Shown piece after piece: positions 37,860-47,127 of a DNA stretch of 64,000 nucleotides. The first letter of the stretch is position 1, and every line of letters starts with the position of its first letter. The stretch spans positions 2,848,001-2,912,000 of the forward strand of contig CBDFIQ010000002.1 in the NCBI GenBank assembly GCA_965248195.1, read 5' to 3'. This stretch comes from Longimicrobiales bacterium (GTDB taxonomy: Bacteria > Gemmatimonadota > Gemmatimonadetes > Longimicrobiales > Gaopeijiaceae). The position numbers were made by a program, and so were the translations under genes. The notes under the pieces were generated by a model. The model was not told the DNA's origin and did no database searches. It saw nothing but the letters and a program-made list of their open reading frames with translations.

Positions 37860-39362
37860 TCAGCCGTCCACCACGCGAAGAGCGCCGGCCATTTCGAGCA
37901 GGGACTCGACCATCCCTTCGTCACCATAGACGTCGGGCACGCCGGAGACGGGCAGCCCTACGGAACGCCCCGCATCGGCCGTCGTCGGTCCGACACCGAA
38001 GATCTGCACACCGTCGAGGTCCACCCCGGACGAGGCCAGTGACTTCGCCGCCGAAGGGCTGTACAGAAGCACTGCATCCACCCCCCTTTTAAACGCGTCC
38101 AACGCGGCGTCATTCGGCGGCTGGAGCAGCGTGTCATACACATGGAGGGTCTGGACTTCCAAACCCACCCGAGTCAACCCGTGGGAAACCTCCTCGACCG
38201 CGAGCGTCCCGCACGGGAAGAGTACCCGCTCGCCGCTCTTCGCCTCGACCCCGATCGCCTCCACGAGAGCTCTAGCTCGATACTCTCCCGGGATCAGGTC
38301 GGCACGGATCCCCGCACTTTTTAGGCCGGCCGCCGTCTTGGGACCGACCGCGGCGATCCGAGCCGCTCCGAAGAAGCGGGCGTCGAGTCCCTGACGCTCA
38401 AGCTGGCGGACGAGTCCCTCGACCCCGTGCATCGACGTGAACACCATCCAATCGTGGTCGGAGCGCGGCTCCGAGAGCTCCGCCTCGAGATATTCAATAC
38501 GGATCAGCGGTGAGTCGATCACCTCCGCTCCGAGCCCTCGAAGCTTCGAAATGACTTGCCTGCTCGCGAAGGAGGGCCGGGTCACGACCACTCGGCGGCC
38601 TGCCAGAGGCCCGAAGCCCACAGCCGGCTTATTGCCGTCGAGGCGGGCCAACCCGGCGCCCGGACCCACGATCAGCACCATCGGCGCTCGCAGACCCTCG
38701 TCGCGGACGATGCCCGCAATGGTGGCAAGGGTCCCCCGGACCTGACGCTCCCCAGGGAGCGTGCCCTCTTGCACGACCGCAGCGGGGGTCGCAACGCCCC
38801 GACCCGCGGCCATCAGGCCATCCGTCACCTCCTCCAACCGAGCGCCGCCCATGAGCACGACCGCGGTGTCCATTTTCGCCATCGCGGCGTACGGGAGATC
38901 GCGGGCCGGAAGGCCCTTTCCGACGCTCGGCGTCACTATACTCACCGTACTCGCGTGTCCGCGCAGCGTGAGCGGGATGCCGGCCCCAGTAGGTACCCCG
39001 GTCGCGCTGGTCACGCCTGGAACCACCTCACAGGGGATACCAGCCAGATAGCAGGCCTCGATCTCCTCCCACCCCCGGCCATAGATAAAGGGATCGCCGC
39101 CCTTCAGGCGGACCACCTCCTTACCGGCCCTGGCCCGCTCGATCAGGACCTCGTGGATCCGGTCCTGAGCCACCGTGTGCTGACCGGGCGCTTTGAAGAC
39201 ATCGATCAGCTCGGCGCCGGGCCTCGTGAGGGTCAAGAGCTCGGCACCGGCGAGCCGATCAAAAACGACCACATCGGCCCGCCCGAGAAGCTCCTGGCCG
39301 CGAACCGTGATGAGCCCCGCATCTCCGGGCCCCGCACCGACCAGCCACACCCGACCAGTCAA
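37860..39362 (-). CDS. cobA: Uroporphyrinogen-III C-methyltransferase / uroporphyrinogen-III synthase fusion (CobA-HemD)
   Basis: LVGAGPGD, RLKGGDPFIYGRG, VPGVTS; C-terminal VVVTRP, VFTS, AVGPKTA, YSPSA; TTG start overlaps the upstream stop. Confidence 0.88.
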   Translation of the reverse strand: MTGRVWLVGAGPGDAGLITVRGQELLGRADVVVFDRLAGAELLTLTRPGAELIDVFKAPGQHTVAQDRIHEVLIERARAGKEVVRLKGGDPFIYGRGWEEIEACYLAGIPCEVVPGVTSATGVPTGAGIPLTLRGHASTVSIVTPSVGKGLPARDLPYAAMAKMDTAVVLMGGARLEEVTDGLMAAGRGVATPAAVVQEGTLPGERQVRGTLATIAGIVRDEGLRAPMVLIVGPGAGLARLDGNKPAVGFGPLAGRRVVVTRPSFASRQVISKLRGLGAEVIDSPLIRIEYLEAELSEPRSDHDWMVFTSMHGVEGLVRQLERQGLDARFFGAARIAAVGPKTAAGLKSAGIRADLIPGEYRARALVEAIGVEAKSGERVLFPCGTLAVEEVSHGLTRVGLEVQTLHVYDTLLQPPNDAALDAFKRGVDAVLLYSPSAAKSLASSGVDLDGVQIFGVGPTTADAGRSVGLPVSGVPDVYGDEGMVESLLEMAGALRVVDG

Positions 39363-40120
39363 GGTACCGAGAGCGTGCCCGAATCGATCGCTTCGAGGGT
39401 GAGCGAGGCCAACTCCGGCCACTCCAATATCGGCGGAAGGATCTTCAGGGTCTGCGGAAGGACCTTGAGGCTCGCCAGCGCGCGGCCGAGCCTTGAGAAC
39501 GTTCGGTGTGCGGTCAGGGCTTTGGCAAGATCGACCAGCACATGTCGTCCGCCTCCAAGGAGCAATGGAACGGCCACGACCGGGCGATCGCCGAGTGAGC
39601 CGGCAACGTCCGAAAGGTATGGAGATTCATCGAGAAAGGCGGTGAGAATCTCCGTACACGGAAAGGTGAGCGCCAGTTCGTCCCGAACCCACCGAGCCGC
39701 ATCCCCGCTCGAACGGACTCGCGTGGTACCATGCCCCACGAGCAGGACGACTGGATTCAGTCCCCGGCGGGTCATGTCCGTCACCGCCTCGCCCACCTTG
39801 GTCGCCAAAACGCGGGGAAATGCTGGAAGTGTGCCGATCGGAGGGGCAATCACGAAAGAACGCGACGGATCCCCCTTCGCCCATTCCTCCGGCAGGCGCC
39901 GTCGTGCGTAGTACCCACCGCTCGCCATGATCGGCACCACCACGGGGTCCTCTCCCCGAGAGCTCCGGGCTGCATCCTCAAAGCTCGGTGTGCCCTTCCA
40001 AAAGGCACACCCGAAGCGAACCCCGGGCCGGGCCTCGCGCAGGGCGTCCGCGAGTTCCAGGAGCGCCCGGTTGGCCGCCGAGCCATCGCCCGCGCCGTGC
40101 GCCGCGAGAATCACGCTCAT
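39359..40120 (-). CDS. CbiX/SirB sirohydrochlorin chelatase
   Basis: Duplicated AAHG and VGHGT motifs, VVPIM, AVPLLLGGGRH; siroheme gene context. Confidence 0.75.
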   Translation of the reverse strand: MSVILAAHGAGDGSAANRALLELADALREARPGVRFGCAFWKGTPSFEDAARSSRGEDPVVVPIMASGGYYARRRLPEEWAKGDPSRSFVIAPPIGTLPAFPRVLATKVGEAVTDMTRRGLNPVVLLVGHGTTRVRSSGDAARWVRDELALTFPCTEILTAFLDESPYLSDVAGSLGDRPVVAVPLLLGGGRHVLVDLAKALTAHRTFSRLGRALASLKVLPQTLKILPPILEWPELASLTLEAIDSGTLSVP

Positions 40121-40126
40121 GGTGTG

Positions 40127-40447
40127 GAGGCCCGTTGAAGGAGTACAGTGGGCCGCGTTGCGGATGCCACGGTCCTAGCTCCTAGGCGGAGCGACGACAC
40201 CATAGCCGTAGCTATGGCTAGGAGCTCCAACAACGGGGGCACCGCACGAAGCGTGGTCGGGGCCGTGCCACCGCAACCCTTCAACGTGTAAGGTCATGTC
40301 ATTCATGTCCGTGGGCACAGGGCGGTTGTGCGATTGATCCTGCGTCTCTCCTCCTCGCCGTAGCGTTGCTACGCCTCGTCGTCGTTCCTTGTCTGAACGC
40401 GCACAAGCGCCCTGTGCGCGACCCGCTGTACTCCTTCAACGGGCCTC
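40127..40447. mobile_element. 321-bp MITE-like element
   Basis: Perfect 22-bp TIR GAGGCCCGTTGAAGGAGTACAG at 40127-40148 and 40426-40447; internal hairpins; no convincing ORF; no clear TSD. Confidence 0.65.
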
Positions 40448-40457
40448 TACGCTACGA

Positions 40458-41093
40458 CTACCCGGCCGCCGAGCGAGCTCCGCTCACGAGCTCTTCGAGA
40501 GTCCATTCCCCCTCGCCGACCACCCTCATATGGAGCGTCAGCGGCCCCCGCTCGTGACCGACTCTTTCAAACTCGATCGGAACCCGGCCATAGAGGTCTG
40601 CCAAAACGTTTTCGAGTTCAGGGGTGACCTCTTCGAAGGCGGCCTCCGTCGCCGGTACGGCAAGACGATCCGTAAAACGAAAGACCATCTCATGCGTCGC
40701 AAACCGCACGGGGTTGTCCCCGGCGGTATCCTGCTCGAGTGCGGCAGCGGCCTCGAGCACGCTCACGATCGCCTCCCGTAAACGCTCGGCCAGAGTCCCC
40801 GACCCCTCCCTCTTCAATTCGTACTCGAGCCCGATACGGCCACCCGCTTCGTCCGTGCGGAGGTGCCACTCATGAGCGATCAGAAGCACTCCGGGCCCCT
40901 CCGGGACATGCGTGTAATCGTGGACGTCGACGAGCGTCCCCGGGAGACGGTCCTCCTGAATCCAACGGTGAAACACCTCGATCACCCGAGCCCGGTCGAA
41001 AGCCTCCTGGTCCTCGACGAAGACCTTCACCCCCAACCTTTGGGGCTCTGAAAGGACCCGAGCGCCCACCTCTGGCGCCGCCTGAGCGCTCAT
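40458..41093 (-). CDS. Hypothetical protein coupled to sulfite reductase
   Basis: ATGA overlap with the sir stop; VFHRWIQ..LVDVHDYTHVPEGPGVLLIAHE. Confidence 0.7.
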   Translation of the reverse strand: MSAQAAPEVGARVLSEPQRLGVKVFVEDQEAFDRARVIEVFHRWIQEDRLPGTLVDVHDYTHVPEGPGVLLIAHEWHLRTDEAGGRIGLEYELKREGSGTLAERLREAIVSVLEAAAALEQDTAGDNPVRFATHEMVFRFTDRLAVPATEAAFEEVTPELENVLADLYGRVPIEFERVGHERGPLTLHMRVVGEGEWTLEELVSGARSAAG

Positions 41094-43375
41094 ACCGATA
41101 CCGTCTCGGCGGTCCGAACGTGGTACGAGTGGGCGGCCTCGATAAAGAGTTGGGCCTCTTCAATTCGCTGGCGAGCCCGCTCAGGCGTCGCGTCGAACCC
41201 ATTGCTGCCCTCGCCGTGCACGCGGAACAAATAGTTTCCGAACTTTCCTCCCGCGTAGGGATCGTGGAACAGGCCTGGGTCATAGAGATGGGTCTTGAAG
41301 GCGGCAACCACGTCGTCGGGATCTTCGCCGAGCCCCACCTCTTTCTCGCGCACCAGAGTTCTCGCCGCGATCAGCATCGCACGGTAGGCGATATCGGCTG
41401 CGCCCGTGGAATCCCCTTGATCCAGCCGATCCTGAGCGTCGAAGACCTCGCGCTCGCTGGCCTGAAGGCCGAACTCGACCGGCGAGACGATCTGGCCGGC
41501 ACACTCACCGATGCCCATGTCGCCCAGTGTGAACTCTCGCGGATCCCCCCAATTCGAGTAGAAGCTGCGGTCCTCCTCGTAGGTGGGCACTTCGACCAGA
41601 TCCTCTAGAAGGGTCCTGAGGCTGGGCTTACCCACACGGGTGACGAAGGCCTTGAAGCTCTCATCCCCCTCGCGCTCATCAACGTAATACTGGGTGATCC
41701 TGTCCGTGGCGGCCGGGATGTTCCGCCCCGGCACGGCGACAATGGCCAGACCATACGCTCCGGCGTTCTCGGCCCATTGGCCGCCCAGCACGATCTGGAA
41801 GTGCGGCACGTTGTATCCGTTGCGCTTTCGGCTCACGCCCCAGAAACCGATGTCCGCCATATGATGCTGCCCGCAACTGTTGAAGCACCCGCTGATCTTG
41901 ATGCGCAACCCCCGCACCACTTCATCCAACTCCCCGTTGCGCTCCTCCAAGTGCTCCATGAGCGTACGCGCCAGACCACGCGAGGATGCGATGCCGAGCT
42001 TGCACGTGTCCGTCCCGGGGCAAGCCGTGATGTCCGTGAGCGTCTCCGCCCGCGCCTCTGCGAGACCGAGCTCGTCCAGGGCGTCGTGTAGAGCGGCGAG
42101 GTCGCTCTCCCGCACCCAGCGAAAAGCCATGTTTTGCTCGACGGTCATTCGGACCGCGTCGCCGGTAAAACGCCTCGCCACGTCCGCGAGGCCCCGCATC
42201 TGATCGGCCGTGATATCACCGAGAGGCAGGTAGACCATGACCACCTTGTAACCCGGCTGCCTCTGCGGGGCCACGTTGGAAGCCAGCCACGCCGCCAACT
42301 GTGGACTCGGCGTGAGCTTGTTCGGCTCCTCGATTTGCCAGAGCGGCCCATCATGACCCTCGTGGACACCTGGAAGGAAGGCGGTCCACCGGGGATCTTC
42401 GGACAGCCCCGCGCGGTCCTCCAGGACGAGGCGCCGGAACTCCTCGATGCCGAGCTTCGCGACGAGGAACTTCAAGCGGGCGCGGGACCGAACATCTTTT
42501 TCCCCCAGACGAGCGAACACTCGAGAGATCGACTGACAGATCGGAAGCAGCTCCTCTTCGGGCAGAAACTCGTCGAACAGCTCCGCCTGGTGAGGAACGG
42601 CCCCCAGGCCTCCGCCGACATAGAACTCGAATCCACGCCGCTCTACCCCAGCCACCTCCCGAACTCGGGCGATTCCACCGAAGTCGTGCATCTTGACGAG
42701 TCCGCAGGGACGGTCGCCACATCCGGAAAAAGCGGGCTTCACCTTTCTTCCGAACTCCTGAGTATCCGGGTGTCCGAGAAGGAAATCGCTGACGGCGGTG
42801 GCGTAGGGGGTGACATCGAACGTCTGTGTCGTGCAGACTCCCGAGAGGTGGCAAGCGGTAACGTTTCTTACGACGTTGCCGCACGCCTCAAGGGTCGTGA
42901 TCCCCACAGCGCCCAGCCGCCGCATCAGATCCGGGGTTTCTTCGAGGTGCACGAAGTGCAACTGGATGTCTTGCCGCGTCGTTACGTGTAGGATCGCGTC
43001 CGCATACTCCTCGGAGACCTCCGCCAGCGCGTCCATCTGATCGGCACTGACCGAACCGAACGGATTCTTGATACGCACCATGCCCGGCGCATCCCACTGC
43101 GTACCCGGGCCCTTGGTGAGCTCGGCGTTCGGGAAGACCAGTTCCCTCGAGTTAAACCCATCGTGGCGCTGGCCGTTGTCGTACCGCTGGCCGTAAACGC
43201 CCCGGCGTAGGCGCATCTCCGCGAAGACCTCATCAGTCAGTTTTCCCTCGCGCTTCTGCTCTATCTGTCCCTCGAAGGCATCGATCTCACGCGAAAGCTT
43301 GTCGCCGACAAGCGATCCGAGCCTTCCCTTCCACTGCCGTGGCTCCGAGGTCTCAAGCTTACCGTTCGTAGTCAT
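41090..43375 (-). CDS. sir: Siroheme/4Fe-4S nitrite/sulfite reductase, probably assimilatory sulfite reductase, with C-terminal extension
   Basis: TTRQDIQLH, ACGNVVRN, CPGTDTC and SGCFNSCG siroheme/FeS ligands; Cys-rich leaders upstream favour sulfite as substrate. Confidence 0.85.
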   Translation of the reverse strand: MTTNGKLETSEPRQWKGRLGSLVGDKLSREIDAFEGQIEQKREGKLTDEVFAEMRLRRGVYGQRYDNGQRHDGFNSRELVFPNAELTKGPGTQWDAPGMVRIKNPFGSVSADQMDALAEVSEEYADAILHVTTRQDIQLHFVHLEETPDLMRRLGAVGITTLEACGNVVRNVTACHLSGVCTTQTFDVTPYATAVSDFLLGHPDTQEFGRKVKPAFSGCGDRPCGLVKMHDFGGIARVREVAGVERRGFEFYVGGGLGAVPHQAELFDEFLPEEELLPICQSISRVFARLGEKDVRSRARLKFLVAKLGIEEFRRLVLEDRAGLSEDPRWTAFLPGVHEGHDGPLWQIEEPNKLTPSPQLAAWLASNVAPQRQPGYKVVMVYLPLGDITADQMRGLADVARRFTGDAVRMTVEQNMAFRWVRESDLAALHDALDELGLAEARAETLTDITACPGTDTCKLGIASSRGLARTLMEHLEERNGELDEVVRGLRIKISGCFNSCGQHHMADIGFWGVSRKRNGYNVPHFQIVLGGQWAENAGAYGLAIVAVPGRNIPAATDRITQYYVDEREGDESFKAFVTRVGKPSLRTLLEDLVEVPTYEEDRSFYSNWGDPREFTLGDMGIGECAGQIVSPVEFGLQASEREVFDAQDRLDQGDSTGAADIAYRAMLIAARTLVREKEVGLGEDPDDVVAAFKTHLYDPGLFHDPYAGGKFGNYLFRVHGEGSNGFDATPERARQRIEEAQLFIEAAHSYHVRTAETVSV

Positions 43376-43470
43376 CGGGTTCCCTTTTCCACTCCCATTC
43401 TATTCAAGCATCCAAGTAGCTGGCGCTCCGCTATCGGTTTCAGCATGCTGTTTTCCATAGATTGTGACCC

Positions 43471-43502
43471 AAAAAAAGCCGCGACCCTCGAGGGGCCGCG
43501 GC
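43471..43502 (-). terminator. Intrinsic attenuator terminator downstream of the poly-Cys leader
   Basis: GCCGCGGCCC-CUCGA-GGGUCGCGGC followed by U7. Confidence 0.85.
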
Positions 43503-43526: not shown

Positions 43527-43610
43527 TCAACGACTCGTCGGAACGCGCCCCTCTCTAGGCGTGACCAGGCAACAACAACAGCAACAACACATGGCCGTCA
43601 GTGGAGTCAT
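43527..43610 (-). CDS. Poly-cysteine leader peptide MTPLTAMCCCCCCCLVTPREGRVPTSR
   Basis: Seven consecutive TGT/TGC codons (43569-43589), followed by antiterminator/terminator, upstream of sir. Confidence 0.85.
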   Translation of the reverse strand: MTPLTAMCCCCCCCLVTPREGRVPTSR

Positions 43611-43702
43611 TTCCCAAGCCTCGAGATTTTCAGGGAACCGCACGTTTCGTATACCTCGTCCTAAGTTTGGGAATTACATACCTGAGTGCCCAAACCGCCG
43701 TG

Positions 43703-43834
43703 TCACTTCTTGTCCGGCGGTGACCTGAGGATAGCCTTCGCGACGTTCTCCGGGGTGTCCGGTATCTTCCGTTGCTGCGTATTGATGTCGTAGTCGTGCT
43801 TCGGCGGCCTGCCGGGCTTCTTCTTGTCTGTCAT
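43703..43834 (-). CDS. 43-aa basic protein in the IS end (MTDKKKPGRPPKHDYDINTQQRKIPDTPENVAKAILRSPPDKK)
   Basis: Below the ORF-track cutoff; AAGGG upstream; AT-hook-like KPGRPPK. Confidence 0.5.
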   Translation of the reverse strand: MTDKKKPGRPPKHDYDINTQQRKIPDTPENVAKAILRSPPDKK

Positions 43835-43846
43835 GTCGTGGCCCTT

Positions 43847-44806
43847 CTATACGGCGTGAATGGTGGCGAATGGTGGTTTGTCCTTCAGCTTCCTCGTCAT
43901 AGACGCCAACGACGGAAGATGCGGCGTGCCCAGAATCTCCAGCCAACACCGCCGGTCTCCGTTCCTTGCACGAATCGGGCCTGCATAAAGCGCGAGTGGT
44001 CCGTTCAAATCCGCTACGATCATGTTGACTTCATCAGGCGTCCAGCCTGGCGAAGTCAGATCGTCTAGTGGCAACACGGTTTGTGTACGAATGTATTCCG
44101 CGAGCAAGTCCTGCACGATCCATATAGTGCGACCGCCCCAGCTATTCGCGGCCTCCGACTTGGCGACAAGTTGCGATGCCATACGCGCCCACACTTGCCG
44201 CGTATTGACGCCGGGAGAGCGAACGGCCTCATTGGCTGGCGTATGCGCGAATAGTACAGCCCTCTTGAACGCCGCCTGTATATCGGTGCCCATCTGCCTA
44301 TTCCCACCGGACGTAGAGCACGTCATGACTTCCACGATGATAGGTGCCGAATCGTCCTCCAAGCCTCGCAATACATAATCAAGACGGTAATTGAACGTCC
44401 CGCCACTTCCTTTCTCTCTTAACGAGATTTCCGACCACACAGACACTGGTTCGCCCGCTTGAAAACCCGCGAGGCGAAACACCCGCTTGGCTAGTTCGTG
44501 ATGTTTGGCCGAAATTCCCTGCGGTCCGAACGCGAATAGGCGGTGAGGGCAGATGGCCCAGACCTTGCCCCGTGCGAAGCGAACCGAGCAAATGCCGCAG
44601 GGCAGCCAGCCGCCCGTCTCCGTGCCCACGGAAGACGAAAATAGATGCCCAAGCGACTCATCCGATGACCGTACTCGCGCCATATCTCGATTTCCGCCAC
44701 CATCACAAACAGACTCGGTGAACGGACATCGGGCCTTCCGGCAAGCATCCCCGTCCATGCCGGACTCTTCGAGCGGCTGTCCATACAACTCTTCCACTAC
44801 AGGCAT
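43847..44806 (-). CDS. NotI-like type II restriction endonuclease
   Basis: CPF..C, GICSV and ICPHR Cys cluster resembling the NotI Fe-Cys4 site; LDYV and IVEVMT nuclease-type residues; overlaps the MTase stop. Confidence 0.7.
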   Translation of the reverse strand: MPVVEELYGQPLEESGMDGDACRKARCPFTESVCDGGGNRDMARVRSSDESLGHLFSSSVGTETGGWLPCGICSVRFARGKVWAICPHRLFAFGPQGISAKHHELAKRVFRLAGFQAGEPVSVWSEISLREKGSGGTFNYRLDYVLRGLEDDSAPIIVEVMTCSTSGGNRQMGTDIQAAFKRAVLFAHTPANEAVRSPGVNTRQVWARMASQLVAKSEAANSWGGRTIWIVQDLLAEYIRTQTVLPLDDLTSPGWTPDEVNMIVADLNGPLALYAGPIRARNGDRRCWLEILGTPHLPSLASMTRKLKDKPPFATIHAV

Positions 44807-45831
44807 AGTGTCTCCGCGACGGCCTTCGCCATTGGTGGCGGGACCGCGTTGGCTACTTGGCGATGCTGGTCAAGGTCACGCACGGAACCCGACCTACCAC
44901 GAATGGGGCCAGTAAAGACGTACGTATCAGGAAAGCCCTGTAGGCGCGCCGCCTCTCGGGGCGTGACGTACCTATCATCGGTCGGATGGTAGGGCGCTTC
45001 CCCGCAGCGCAGCGTAGGCGCGAACGACGAACGGTCGAGGCGGCGAAACTTCGTCGTGTCCTTACGTGTGAGCTTCTTGATAATGTCCGGTGGCGCATCA
45101 GGACACTTCGATAACCATAGCCCTTCCGGCACGAAGGATATGCGCTCCCTGTCTCTCGCTGGCGTTATGTCAATGTGGTTCGGCAGTGCCGGGTTTCCAT
45201 CTCGCAGCACGGGGTCTGGCATCTTGCTCAAGGCGTCGCCTACGGTCCGCCGAACCCCGTTTCCCAACGGGAAGTCGAACTGCACATCTTCACCGGGAAG
45301 GAACACAAGAAAAACGCGCTCACGGTTCTGGGGCAGACCATAGTGCAATGCGTTCAGAGTACGAACATGCATCTTGTAGCCAAGCTCTTGAAACTCCGAC
45401 GCGAGCATATGGACGGCCCGCTGTCCATCCGGCATCATCGCTCGCAAGAAATACGGAACCTGCTCTATCATGACGGCCCTGGGGCGGAAGACATCCGTAA
45501 ATCGCACCATGTCGAAAATCAGCATCCCTCGCGGGTCACTAACTCCGTTGCGCTTCCCGATCTGGCTGAACGGCTGGCATGGGGGACCGCCATGGAGAAG
45601 CCCTAGATCGCCTTTACTCATTCCGAGAAGGTCACGCATTCTGTCAGCATCAACCAACCGGACATCGACGTTCCAAACCGTCTTCTTGCGAGCGTTACGC
45701 CTGAGTGTGGTGGCGCAATGCGGATCAAAATCGATGGAGCAAACCGTTTTGAACCCAGCCTGATCCACACCAATGTCCATGCCGCCCGCCCCCGCGAATA
45801 AGCTCACTGCGCTTCCGCGATTCCGCATCAC
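44797..45831 (-). CDS. DNA cytosine-5 methyltransferase
   Basis: FAGAGG, GPPCQPFS, EQV (ENV variant), QNRERVF, REAARLQGFP, ANAVPP. Confidence 0.92.
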   Translation of the reverse strand: MMRNRGSAVSLFAGAGGMDIGVDQAGFKTVCSIDFDPHCATTLRRNARKKTVWNVDVRLVDADRMRDLLGMSKGDLGLLHGGPPCQPFSQIGKRNGVSDPRGMLIFDMVRFTDVFRPRAVMIEQVPYFLRAMMPDGQRAVHMLASEFQELGYKMHVRTLNALHYGLPQNRERVFLVFLPGEDVQFDFPLGNGVRRTVGDALSKMPDPVLRDGNPALPNHIDITPARDRERISFVPEGLWLSKCPDAPPDIIKKLTRKDTTKFRRLDRSSFAPTLRCGEAPYHPTDDRYVTPREAARLQGFPDTYVFTGPIRGRSGSVRDLDQHRQVANAVPPPMAKAVAETLCL

Positions 45832-46799
45832 GCGACCAGTTCCCGGTAGCGGAGCCGTCCGCCGACCAGCCCACGCGCCACCGCGCCCATCTGGTCCAGC
45901 GTGTCTAGCGGTCGGTCGTTGAAGCGTCCGGCGAACTCCGCGACATAACGGTCCAGATGCTTCGGGCTCATGTGGTGATAGGTGCCGTAGTAGCCGCGCT
46001 TGAGGAGCGCCCAGAACGATTCCACGCCGTTCGTGTGGGCTTGGCCGTTCACGTACTCCCTGACGCTGTGGCGTACCGTAGCGTGCTCGTAGTCGCGGGA
46101 GAGCCCACCGTAGCCGCCATGGTCGTCCGTGTAGACGGTGGACCCGGCCTCGGCGTGGTCGGCAACGAACCCCGTCAGCGTCTCACCGTCTACACGATCC
46201 ACCACGCGAGCGGCTACCTGCTTCGTCTCGCGATTCTTCGCGCCAGCCACGGCGGTCTTGCCAACCGGCCCACGGCCAGCCCGTAGCTTCTTGCTCCCGT
46301 GCTTGTTCCGCTCCTTGCCGCCTATGTACGTCTCATCGACCTCGACGGGACCGGAGAACGGGGCCGGGGCGGTGCGCCACGTCTGGCGGATCCGGTGCGC
46401 CAGATGCCAAGCGGTCTTCTGCGTCACACCCAGATCACGGTGCAGCTTCATGCTGCTGGCTCCCTTAATGCCGGTCGTGAGGATGTAGATCGCGACGGCC
46501 CACACCTGATAGCCGAGCTTCGTGTCTTCCATCGCCGTGCCGACCCGTACGCTAAACCGCTTGCGGCACGACCGGCAACGGTAGGGCATCGTCGGGTGCT
46601 TCGCGCCCATTTGCACGTTATCCGACGCGCAATGCGGGCAGACCGGAGAGCCGCCCCAGCGCTGTTCTGCGAACCACCCTTCGGCAGCTTCGTCGCTCGG
46701 GAATATCCGCATCAACTCCACCCATGACAGCCCTTCGCGCTCCGCCCGTCCGGGGCCGCCGTTGTACTTGCTGTTGCCGCTCATCTCTATGCTCCGCAA
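45828..46799 (-). CDS. IS1595-family (ISXO2-like DDE) transposase (start may be the ATG at 46784)
   Basis: Zn ribbon CPHC..CRSC, VEVDETYIGG, VYTDD, HTNGVESFW. Confidence 0.93.
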   Translation of the reverse strand: MRSIEMSGNSKYNGGPGRAEREGLSWVELMRIFPSDEAAEGWFAEQRWGGSPVCPHCASDNVQMGAKHPTMPYRCRSCRKRFSVRVGTAMEDTKLGYQVWAVAIYILTTGIKGASSMKLHRDLGVTQKTAWHLAHRIRQTWRTAPAPFSGPVEVDETYIGGKERNKHGSKKLRAGRGPVGKTAVAGAKNRETKQVAARVVDRVDGETLTGFVADHAEAGSTVYTDDHGGYGGLSRDYEHATVRHSVREYVNGQAHTNGVESFWALLKRGYYGTYHHMSPKHLDRYVAEFAGRFNDRPLDTLDQMGAVARGLVGGRLRYRELVA

Positions 46800-46921
46800 T
46801 GTGTTATCCTATATTGGTAATATAGTACCCATCACGGAGGGTCGCAAGGGGTTTGGGTACTCAGGTATGTAATCCCCCTAAGTTTCGGGTCTTTCCATTC
46901 CCGGTCTCACCCGGTTCGAAC

Positions 46922-46951
46922 AAAAAAGGCCCTCGGGAAAACCCGGCGGCC
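46922..46951 (-). terminator. Second intrinsic terminator after the upstream Cys leader
   Basis: GGCC-GC-CGGG-UUUU-CCCG-AG-GGCC followed by U6. Confidence 0.7.
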
Positions 46952-46975
46952 TCTTGAACTGGAATCCAAACCCAC

Positions 46976-47003
46976 AAAAAAGCCACCGAATGTCTCCGGT
47001 GGC
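46976..47003 (-). terminator. Intrinsic attenuator terminator after the upstream Cys leader
   Basis: GCCACCGGA-GACA-UUCGGUGGC followed by U6. Confidence 0.8.
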
Positions 47004-47031
47004 GTTTCAGGGAACCTCGTCGCGTGTATGC

Positions 47032-47127
47032 CTATACGACGTCTCCCCGATACCCCACCGGGCTCGGACAAGAACATCGGCAACAACAACTCTCGAGCAT
47101 CATGACCCGCATCCTTTTACAACACAT
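47032..47127 (-). CDS. Cys-rich leader peptide (MCCKRMRV)MMLESCCCRCSCPSPVGYRGDVV; start at 47127, 47112 or 47103
   Basis: Five Cys in seven codons (47068-47088), followed by antiterminator/terminator. Confidence 0.75.
   Translation of the reverse strand: MCCKRMRVMMLESCCCRCSCPSPVGYRGDVV

Follow-up and report, generated by a model that had tools for sequence, protein, structure and literature searches.

A tandem leader before a sulfite reductase operon in a Longimicrobiales bacterium: a likely cysteine attenuator with a predicted relay helix linking its two terminators

A short cysteine-rich reading frame that runs into two adjacent terminator hairpins raises the question of what such a leader senses, which genes it controls and how RNA polymerase could pass both terminators. 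Here we examine one such leader (leader 1) within a 64,000-nt stretch of genomic DNA, called the window throughout, from an uncultured member of the Longimicrobiales (Gemmatimonadota). Leader-peptide attenuation is a textbook principle, and we consider it probable that leader 1 is the upstream half of a tandem leader that serves as a ribosome-mediated, cysteine-sensing attenuator of a cysH-sulfite reductase-siroheme operon, its terminators being predicted to be relay-coupled. The cysteine-sensing reading is well supported by the anatomy of the leader, its conservation and folding models. Leader 1 consists of the following elements:

47185-47158, minus strand: sigma70-type promoter candidate, TTGACA (47185-47180), 16-nt spacer, TAGCGT (47163-47158), from sequence and conservation
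47112-47116, minus strand: SD-like AAGGA of leader 1; a purine-rich motif precedes the start in 24 copies
47032-47103, minus strand: leader ORF 1, 23 amino acids, Cys at codons 6, 7, 8, 10 and 12 (47088-47068)
46996-47061, minus strand: predicted antiterminator (2:3), core 47061-47055 with 47002-46996
47049-47044/47013-47008 and 47040-47036/47023-47019, minus strand: inner helices of the antiterminator, from the predicted fold
46976-47003, minus strand: terminator T1 (3:4), 9-bp stem (47003-46982) and U6 to 46976
46922-46954, minus strand: terminator T2 (5:6), stem with internal loop (46954-46928) and U6 (46927-46922)

This layout and its conservation are directly observed. A preliminary description of the same DNA had placed a cysteine-rich ORF behind a TTGACA-N16-TAGCGT promoter, and both hexamers and an ORF ending at 47032 are indeed present on the minus strand. 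The start that it gave, at 47127, had to be moved: the ATG there lies upstream and in frame but is not conserved in relatives, and we rejected it for the ATG at 47103, which has the SD-like motif upstream and is the conserved start (ATG in 23 and GTG in one of 24 distinct copies). At the genus level, 31 of 34 cysH loci retain both promoter hexamers and their 16-nt spacing around a spacer of variable sequence, and the three loci with no promoter match have only 4-176 nt of upstream sequence. Support for this promoter comes from its conservation. A generic promoter and terminator scan had no entry for it; since that scan also missed T2 and gave no excess over shuffled sequences, we did not use it as support. 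The leader-1 peptide had no match in Pfam, and an Rfam scan found no family over leader 1, with the T-box and S-box/SAM riboswitch models unmatched. The sole Rfam match in the window is a cobalamin riboswitch (RF00174; 55709-55848, minus strand) before a TonB-receptor-like ORF.

The pairings proposed at the outset are likewise present. CCGGUGG (47061-47055) is the exact complement of CCACCGG (47002-46996) in the 5' arm of T1, the inner pairs CGGGGA (47049)/UCCCUG (47013) and GUCGU (47040)/GCGAC (47023) all occur in the predicted fold, and the announced second hairpin with its U6 corresponds to T2 (46954-46928 and 46927-46922), whose GGCC begins 24 nt past the U-tract of T1. The predicted antiterminator overlaps the 3' part of ORF 1 and is mutually exclusive with T1. 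Its 7-bp core is present in 24 of 24 leader-1 copies and its extended helices are ~99% paired; across 24 copies, 98.6% of cells are paired in T1, which is followed by a U-tract, and 86.6% in T2, and the U-tract of T2 is damaged in several copies (for example L044 and L057). All leader-1 helices are intact in the copy of this genome. Within ORF 1, codons 15-17 are invariant even at silent positions and codons 2, 4 and 5 vary freely; the invariance of codons 9-12 arises in part by construction, from the search motif, but L053 and L068, which fall outside that motif, nevertheless encode RCSC. The Cys codons are UGU in 9 of 12 cases, compared with 31% genome-wide in a crude ORF set. In the covariance analysis that the preliminary description had named as a check, two-sided changes were seen in 2 of 35 read-through pairs of leader 1 and in none of the relay helix described below, and covariation within leader 1 is thin because the helix cores are invariant.

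We propose that when cysteine is plentiful the ribosome would reach the stop codon of ORF 1 and melt the antiterminator, whereupon T1 would form and transcription would end near 46976. Polymerases leaking past T1 would meet T2, which could form because the 3' arm of T1 would be occupied. When Cys-tRNA is scarce, the ribosome would stall on Cys codons 6-10, ORF codons 15-23 would pair with the 5' arm of T1, and the freed 3' arm and U-tract of T1 would capture the 5' arm of T2, such that neither terminator would form. The read-through RNA would then enter leader 2, a second Cys gate with its own terminator (T3), so that two sensing steps would act in series behind one promoter.

What folding predicts for the first of these switches depends on the model. 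We used a partition-function model on 26 copies in which either the ribosome footprint and the upstream RNA were masked or the 5' UTR was left free to pair. With the upstream RNA masked, the antiterminator is predicted to win in 24, 25 and 25 of the 26 copies when the ribosome sits at Cys 6, 8 and 10, and T1 wins in 25 of 26 when it sits at the stop codon; with the 5' UTR free, the antiterminator wins at the same three codons in only 14, 16 and 20 of 26. A stall at Cys 12 is predicted to give termination at T1 in all 26 copies. The copy in the window behaves alike in both modes, with the antiterminator predicted upon stalling and the terminator at the stop codon. When no ribosome is included, T1 wins in 21 of 26 copies and the window's copy is predicted to read through (0.99). 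The T1 switch is therefore close in thermodynamic terms and probably dependent on folding order, as the antiterminator can form in 25-26 of 26 copies, with the ribosome stalled at Cys 6-10, before the 3' arm of T1 exists. One feature counts against the model, namely that a ribosome terminating at the stop codon would have the antiterminator core, 20-27 nt upstream, directly at its rear. Full-length minimum-energy folds of nine copies were mixed and uninformative.

A plausible way past T2 is offered by one further predicted helix:

46942-46990, minus strand: predicted relay helix (4:5), 46990-46978 (T1 3' arm and U-tract) paired with 46954-46942 (T2 5' arm)

The 5' arm of T2 is a near-copy of the 5' arm of T1, and the freed 3' arm of T1 could pair with it. 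When the antiterminator is locked, the relay helix wins over T2 in all 24 copies modelled, and when T1 is locked, T2 forms in every one of the 24. Because the antiterminator would hold the T1 5' arm while the freed 3' arm takes the T2 5' arm, one stalled ribosome would open both terminators. Among 355 terminator arms in the genome, the T1 3' arm pairs best with the T2 5' arm (-19.3, compared with -17.1 for its own arm). The 7-bp core of the relay helix is fully paired in 27 of 27 copies. Within T2, its fourth base lacks a partner in 26 of 27 copies, yet A and G are the sole bases seen there (approximately four changes on the tree); at the fifth base they are C and U, with all variants keeping the relay pair; these relay-compatible changes are all transitions, the commonest mutations, in copies that are kin. 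The register of the relay was set by motif, and earlier two-sided counts for T2 had been inflated by one misaligned row (L038).

Leader 1 had been presented as a second, independent leader whose design repeats that of a sequence-unlike leader 2. The two sequences do differ, but their independence did not survive comparison with related DNA: leaders 1 and 2 are the halves of a single 5' leader, separated in this strain by an IS1595-family element, with the following features:

46878-46885, minus strand: target-site duplication, copy 1, 8 bp, from sequence
43669-46877, minus strand: IS1595-family element, 3,209 bp, from ~26-bp terminal inverted repeats and empty-site contigs
46799-45828, minus strand: IS transposase (NF033547, 188 bits against a cut-off of 75)
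45831-44797, minus strand: dcm methylase within the IS
44806-43847, minus strand: 319-aa ORF within the IS, putative nuclease, no family match
43661-43668, minus strand: target-site duplication, copy 2, 8 bp, from sequence

The insertion, too, is directly observed. The element has a transposase above the family cut-off, terminal inverted repeats, an 8-bp duplication and an empty site, which together place it in the IS1595 family, where 8-bp target duplications and passenger genes are habitual. It shares the carriage of passenger genes with the transporter IS of that family, a likeness that concerns the interrupting element and not the switch. Contigs from three other studies join both flanks and skip 3217 bp, a length equal to the element and one duplication; for the two listed in full, the joined sequence departs from the window at 3 positions over ~250 bases, and in the best-matching sample one contig bridges the left junction of the IS. 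As the empty-site contigs are near-identical to the window, the insertion is recent and divides what was a single leader. In relatives and in these near-identical empty-site strains the order is promoter, leader 1, T1, T2, leader 2, T3, (cysH) and sulfite reductase, and in this strain leader 1 is immediately followed by the transposase, the DNA methylase and the putative nuclease on the same strand. A run recorded as RNA (X23, share 0.07) contains a 183-nt contig that covers the 3' side of T1, T2 and the empty-site joint into leader 2; we did not count it as evidence of read-through, because such contigs tell nothing of strand, ends or level and may stem from carried-over DNA. Two runs that were merely guessed to be RNA gave no coverage of leader 1 itself. 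No second copy of leader 1 or of the whole IS was found in this genome; a second, diverged IS1595-like element (G000:C2, ~2,996,200-2,997,700) adjoins one of the two tRNA-Cys genes identified with ARAGORN.

Beyond the insertion lie the second gate and the operon:

43527-43643, minus strand: leader ORF 2 with seven Cys in a row; the GTG preceded by a GAGG SD is the likely start
43471-43502, minus strand: terminator T3 of leader 2, predicted antiterminator core 43553-43547
41090-43375, minus strand: NirA/Sir-type siroheme reductase, the first regulated gene in this genome, from context probably a sulfite reductase
37860-41093, minus strand: rest of the operon, a 211-aa protein of unknown function, a CbiX-type chelatase and a uroporphyrinogen methyltransferase/synthase fusion (siroheme supply)

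The GTG start of leader ORF 2 is an ATG in one homolog (L055). The downstream genes of relatives, cysH (PF01507) and a siroheme reductase, match the cysteine pathway, and cysH precedes the reductase in 7 of 8 same-genus genomes that have the full reductase gene. In this genome cysH has been deleted at window positions 43375-43470; no match to the PAPS reductase family (PF01507) was found in this genome (91.8% complete) or in genome G006, where the deletion has a different junction and left the first cysH codons fused to the reductase. Since read-through in this strain enters the 3.2-kb IS first and cysH is missing, the present-day output of the switch is uncertain here.

The arrangement was also followed through relatives. 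Leader 1 is present in 8 of 11 same-genus genomes, and the three misses are genomes of 73-85% completeness. An order-wide DNA search of 301 genomes recovered leader 1 at full length in four, counting this genome, along with five short weak matches; three of the five were inspected and discarded, two as chance and one (L150) as a different poly-Cys leader. The leader-2 core is intact in 16 of 27 distinct promoter-to-cysH haplotypes and has been lost from the other 11 through several different deletions; the IS is absent from all 27. Our scan for leaders at cysH loci covered 71 of 104 loci. Single poly-Cys leaders with a terminator occur at 13 of 18 distant loci (57-70% cysH identity); the other five have no Cys-rich leader, two of them with <200 nt of upstream sequence, and none was found at 18 loci of ≤52% identity. 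Most of the distant single leaders can be aligned to leader 2; in this alignment of 10 distant and 11 genus-level rows, 4 of 14 predicted pairs show two-sided changes. On this basis leader 2 is probably the older gate, and leader 1 the added one.

Several copies show variations of their own. L031 and L040 carry a late +1 insertion in leader 1, and a new stop two codons on keeps termination in the same hairpin loop. In L044 and L057 a leader-2 deletion removes the T2 U-tract and fuses T2 to the T3 hairpin, which yields a rebuilt two-hairpin end. L143 and L151 (G267:C1, ~1,719 kb and 1,745 kb) are two occurrences, ~26 kb apart, of one leader-cysH locus, and their leaders are identical. Poly-Cys leaders of unrelated sequence, each with a terminator, were seen at L150:1460-1660 (G097, another family), L033:8790-8950, L066:1590-1740 and L127, and by eye the genes after them are reductase-like, siroheme synthase-like and cysH.

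Within this genome the arrangement is specific. Only 2 of 355 terminator-like hairpins are preceded within ≤70 nt by an ORF with at least four Cys in eight codons, and these belong to leader 1 and leader 2; T1 and T2 are also the sole pair of the 355 that lie ≤60 nt apart. Of the 355 hairpins, T1 is the best partner for the ORF 1 segment (-32.4 kcal/mol), a test that is weak on its own because the runner-up is nearly equal (-32.0). Directly before hisG, the same genome encodes a His7 leader ORF followed by a terminator hairpin (G000:C2, ~2,832,560-2,832,720; L141:1060-1220, plus strand), which from its sequence is a classical-looking histidine attenuator in Gemmatimonadota and suggests that leader-peptide attenuation is in use in this lineage.

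Other readings of leader 1 were weighed against the coupled attenuator. The anatomy would also fit a real Cys attenuator in which T1 alone is regulated; T2 would then be a remnant of a T1 duplication or a weak terminator that acts constitutively, and the relay pairing a by-product of the likeness of the 5' arms. Since these arms are nearly identical, duplication of a hairpin would yield the relay automatically, with no selection, and the lack of two-sided covariation in the relay and the decayed T2 U-tract of some copies are in keeping with this. Against it, the 3' arm of T2 has drifted off base 4 in 26 of 27 copies while its 5' arm fully matches the T1 3' arm in all 27, and T2 is retained even where leader 2 has been deleted, so we regard this reading as improbable. 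We give still less credence to a stand-alone transcript, in which the ORF and the double terminator would make, for example, an sRNA or a small Cys-rich peptide that binds metal or acts in redox binding, and the downstream genes would have a promoter of their own. A strong promoter consensus, a pair of good terminators and conservation of the motif CCCRCSC would suit such a transcript, but ORF 1 pairs with T1, and invariance at the silent sites of codons 15-17, next to the freedom of codons 2, 4 and 5, speaks against it. So does the spacing: T2 lies ~25 nt from the start of leader 2 in L032 and 28 nt from the start of cysH in 2 of the 27 haplotypes (L040 and L114), where no room is left for another promoter and any transcription of cysH has to pass both terminators. 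It is similarly very doubtful that ORF 1 encodes an arrest peptide or senses another signal (sulfide, metal or redox) rather than the level of Cys-tRNA; the C-terminal peptide is conserved, but this conservation is at the nucleotide level and coincides with paired RNA, and the Cys run, but not the leader-1 peptide, recurs in leader 2 and in the distant leaders.

A different reservation concerns this strain alone, and the mechanism could hold in relatives all the same. The leader could be an ancestral switch that is now functionally dead, with an IS promoter feeding leader 2 directly and the pathway decayed after the loss of cysH. The IS does sit between the two halves, the genome lacks cysH, and a promoter-like site is found inside the IS at 46847-46819, although one such site was found where 1.3 are expected by chance. 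On the other side, every helix of leader 1 is preserved, a scan inside the IS gave no terminator-like site on the minus strand, and not only the reductase and siroheme genes, which G006 also retains despite its own cysH loss, but ATP sulfurylase and cysteine synthase remain in this genome. We consider a dead switch possible but rather unlikely.

The coupled attenuator that we favour can be set beside known systems, here compared on the basis of the cited passages. The classical leader-peptide transcription attenuator is E. coli trpL (PMC4615214; PMC3641672). Like this type, leader 1 has a short ORF with a run of codons for the end product, an antiterminator overlapping the 3' part of the ORF, an intrinsic terminator and a biosynthetic operon, and at the level of sequence it qualifies as a trpL-type attenuator. 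Unlike trpL, it would sense cysteine, carries a second terminator predicted to be relay-coupled and is followed by a second leader in series, and a conserved 1:2 protector hairpin is not established for it. The uORFC-8-2 motif before cysS in Rhodobacterales is a presumed ribosome-mediated attenuator with Cys codons and an intrinsic terminator (PMC8632094), which differs from leader 1 in its two Cys codons, single terminator, cysS target and alphaproteobacterial hosts. In mycobacteria, polycysteine leaderless sORFs such as Ms5788A, predicted earlier (PMC1262725), have been shown experimentally to sense Cys-tRNA upstream of cysteine genes (10.1101/834739). A poly-Cys sORF before cysteine genes is common to both, but Ms5788A is leaderless and, as described there, lacks an intrinsic terminator and controls translation by occluding the SD, whereas ORF 1 begins ~48 nt after the inferred start site, is led by an SD-like motif and is followed by terminators, which sets it apart from the mycobacterial type.

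Precedents for doubled elements exist as well. The leader-peptide transcription attenuator erm(K) of Bacillus licheniformis has two adjacent Rho-independent terminators (PMC4335068), as does leader 1, but is induced by macrolides and not by amino-acid shortage. The tandem attenuators mgtM/mgtP of Salmonella mgtCBR place two leader ORFs in series in one 5' leader (PMC3641672); they respond to two different signals (ATP and proline) and, as portrayed there, do so with no intrinsic terminators, whereas here the same amino acid would be read twice with three intrinsic terminators. For the rimP leader, a tandem second terminator with a potential antiterminator has been noted (PMC2965389). Full-text searches, which covered few subscription papers, found neither a leader-peptide attenuator in Gemmatimonads nor leader-peptide transcription attenuation of cysH by cysteine. 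The combination of two or tandem terminators with an antiterminator and a leader peptide was not found in the literature searched either, and the supplementary motif tables of PMC8632094 and PMC2965389 could list similar leaders. Each part thus has a separate precedent, and the combination was not found in print.

In the literature that we found, and within the parts of it cited here, a terminator-based cysteine attenuator is only predicted and the sole tested cysteine case acts on translation. We lean slightly towards a full scheme in which one amino acid is sensed twice in series through two leader peptides and three intrinsic terminators, with an RNA domino at the first gate and T2 catching the leak of the OFF state, and in which the IS genes of this strain have also come under cysteine-starvation control. 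If true, this would provide a tighter and steeper cysteine response with no protein regulator, and in this strain it would place a transposase and a methylase-nuclease pair under the same control. The relay would be a simple design for less leak at no cost to the ON state, and the natural one- and two-leader variants permit a test of whether stacked attenuators for the same signal sharpen a response. Leader 1 may further serve as a compact test system in a phylum for which we found no paper on a leader-peptide attenuator.

Elsewhere in the window, at 4324-24844 on the plus strand, translations inspected by eye point to a large PUFA-synthase-like (pfa-type) polyketide cluster that is followed by KAS III, hydrolase, ligase and reductase ORFs.
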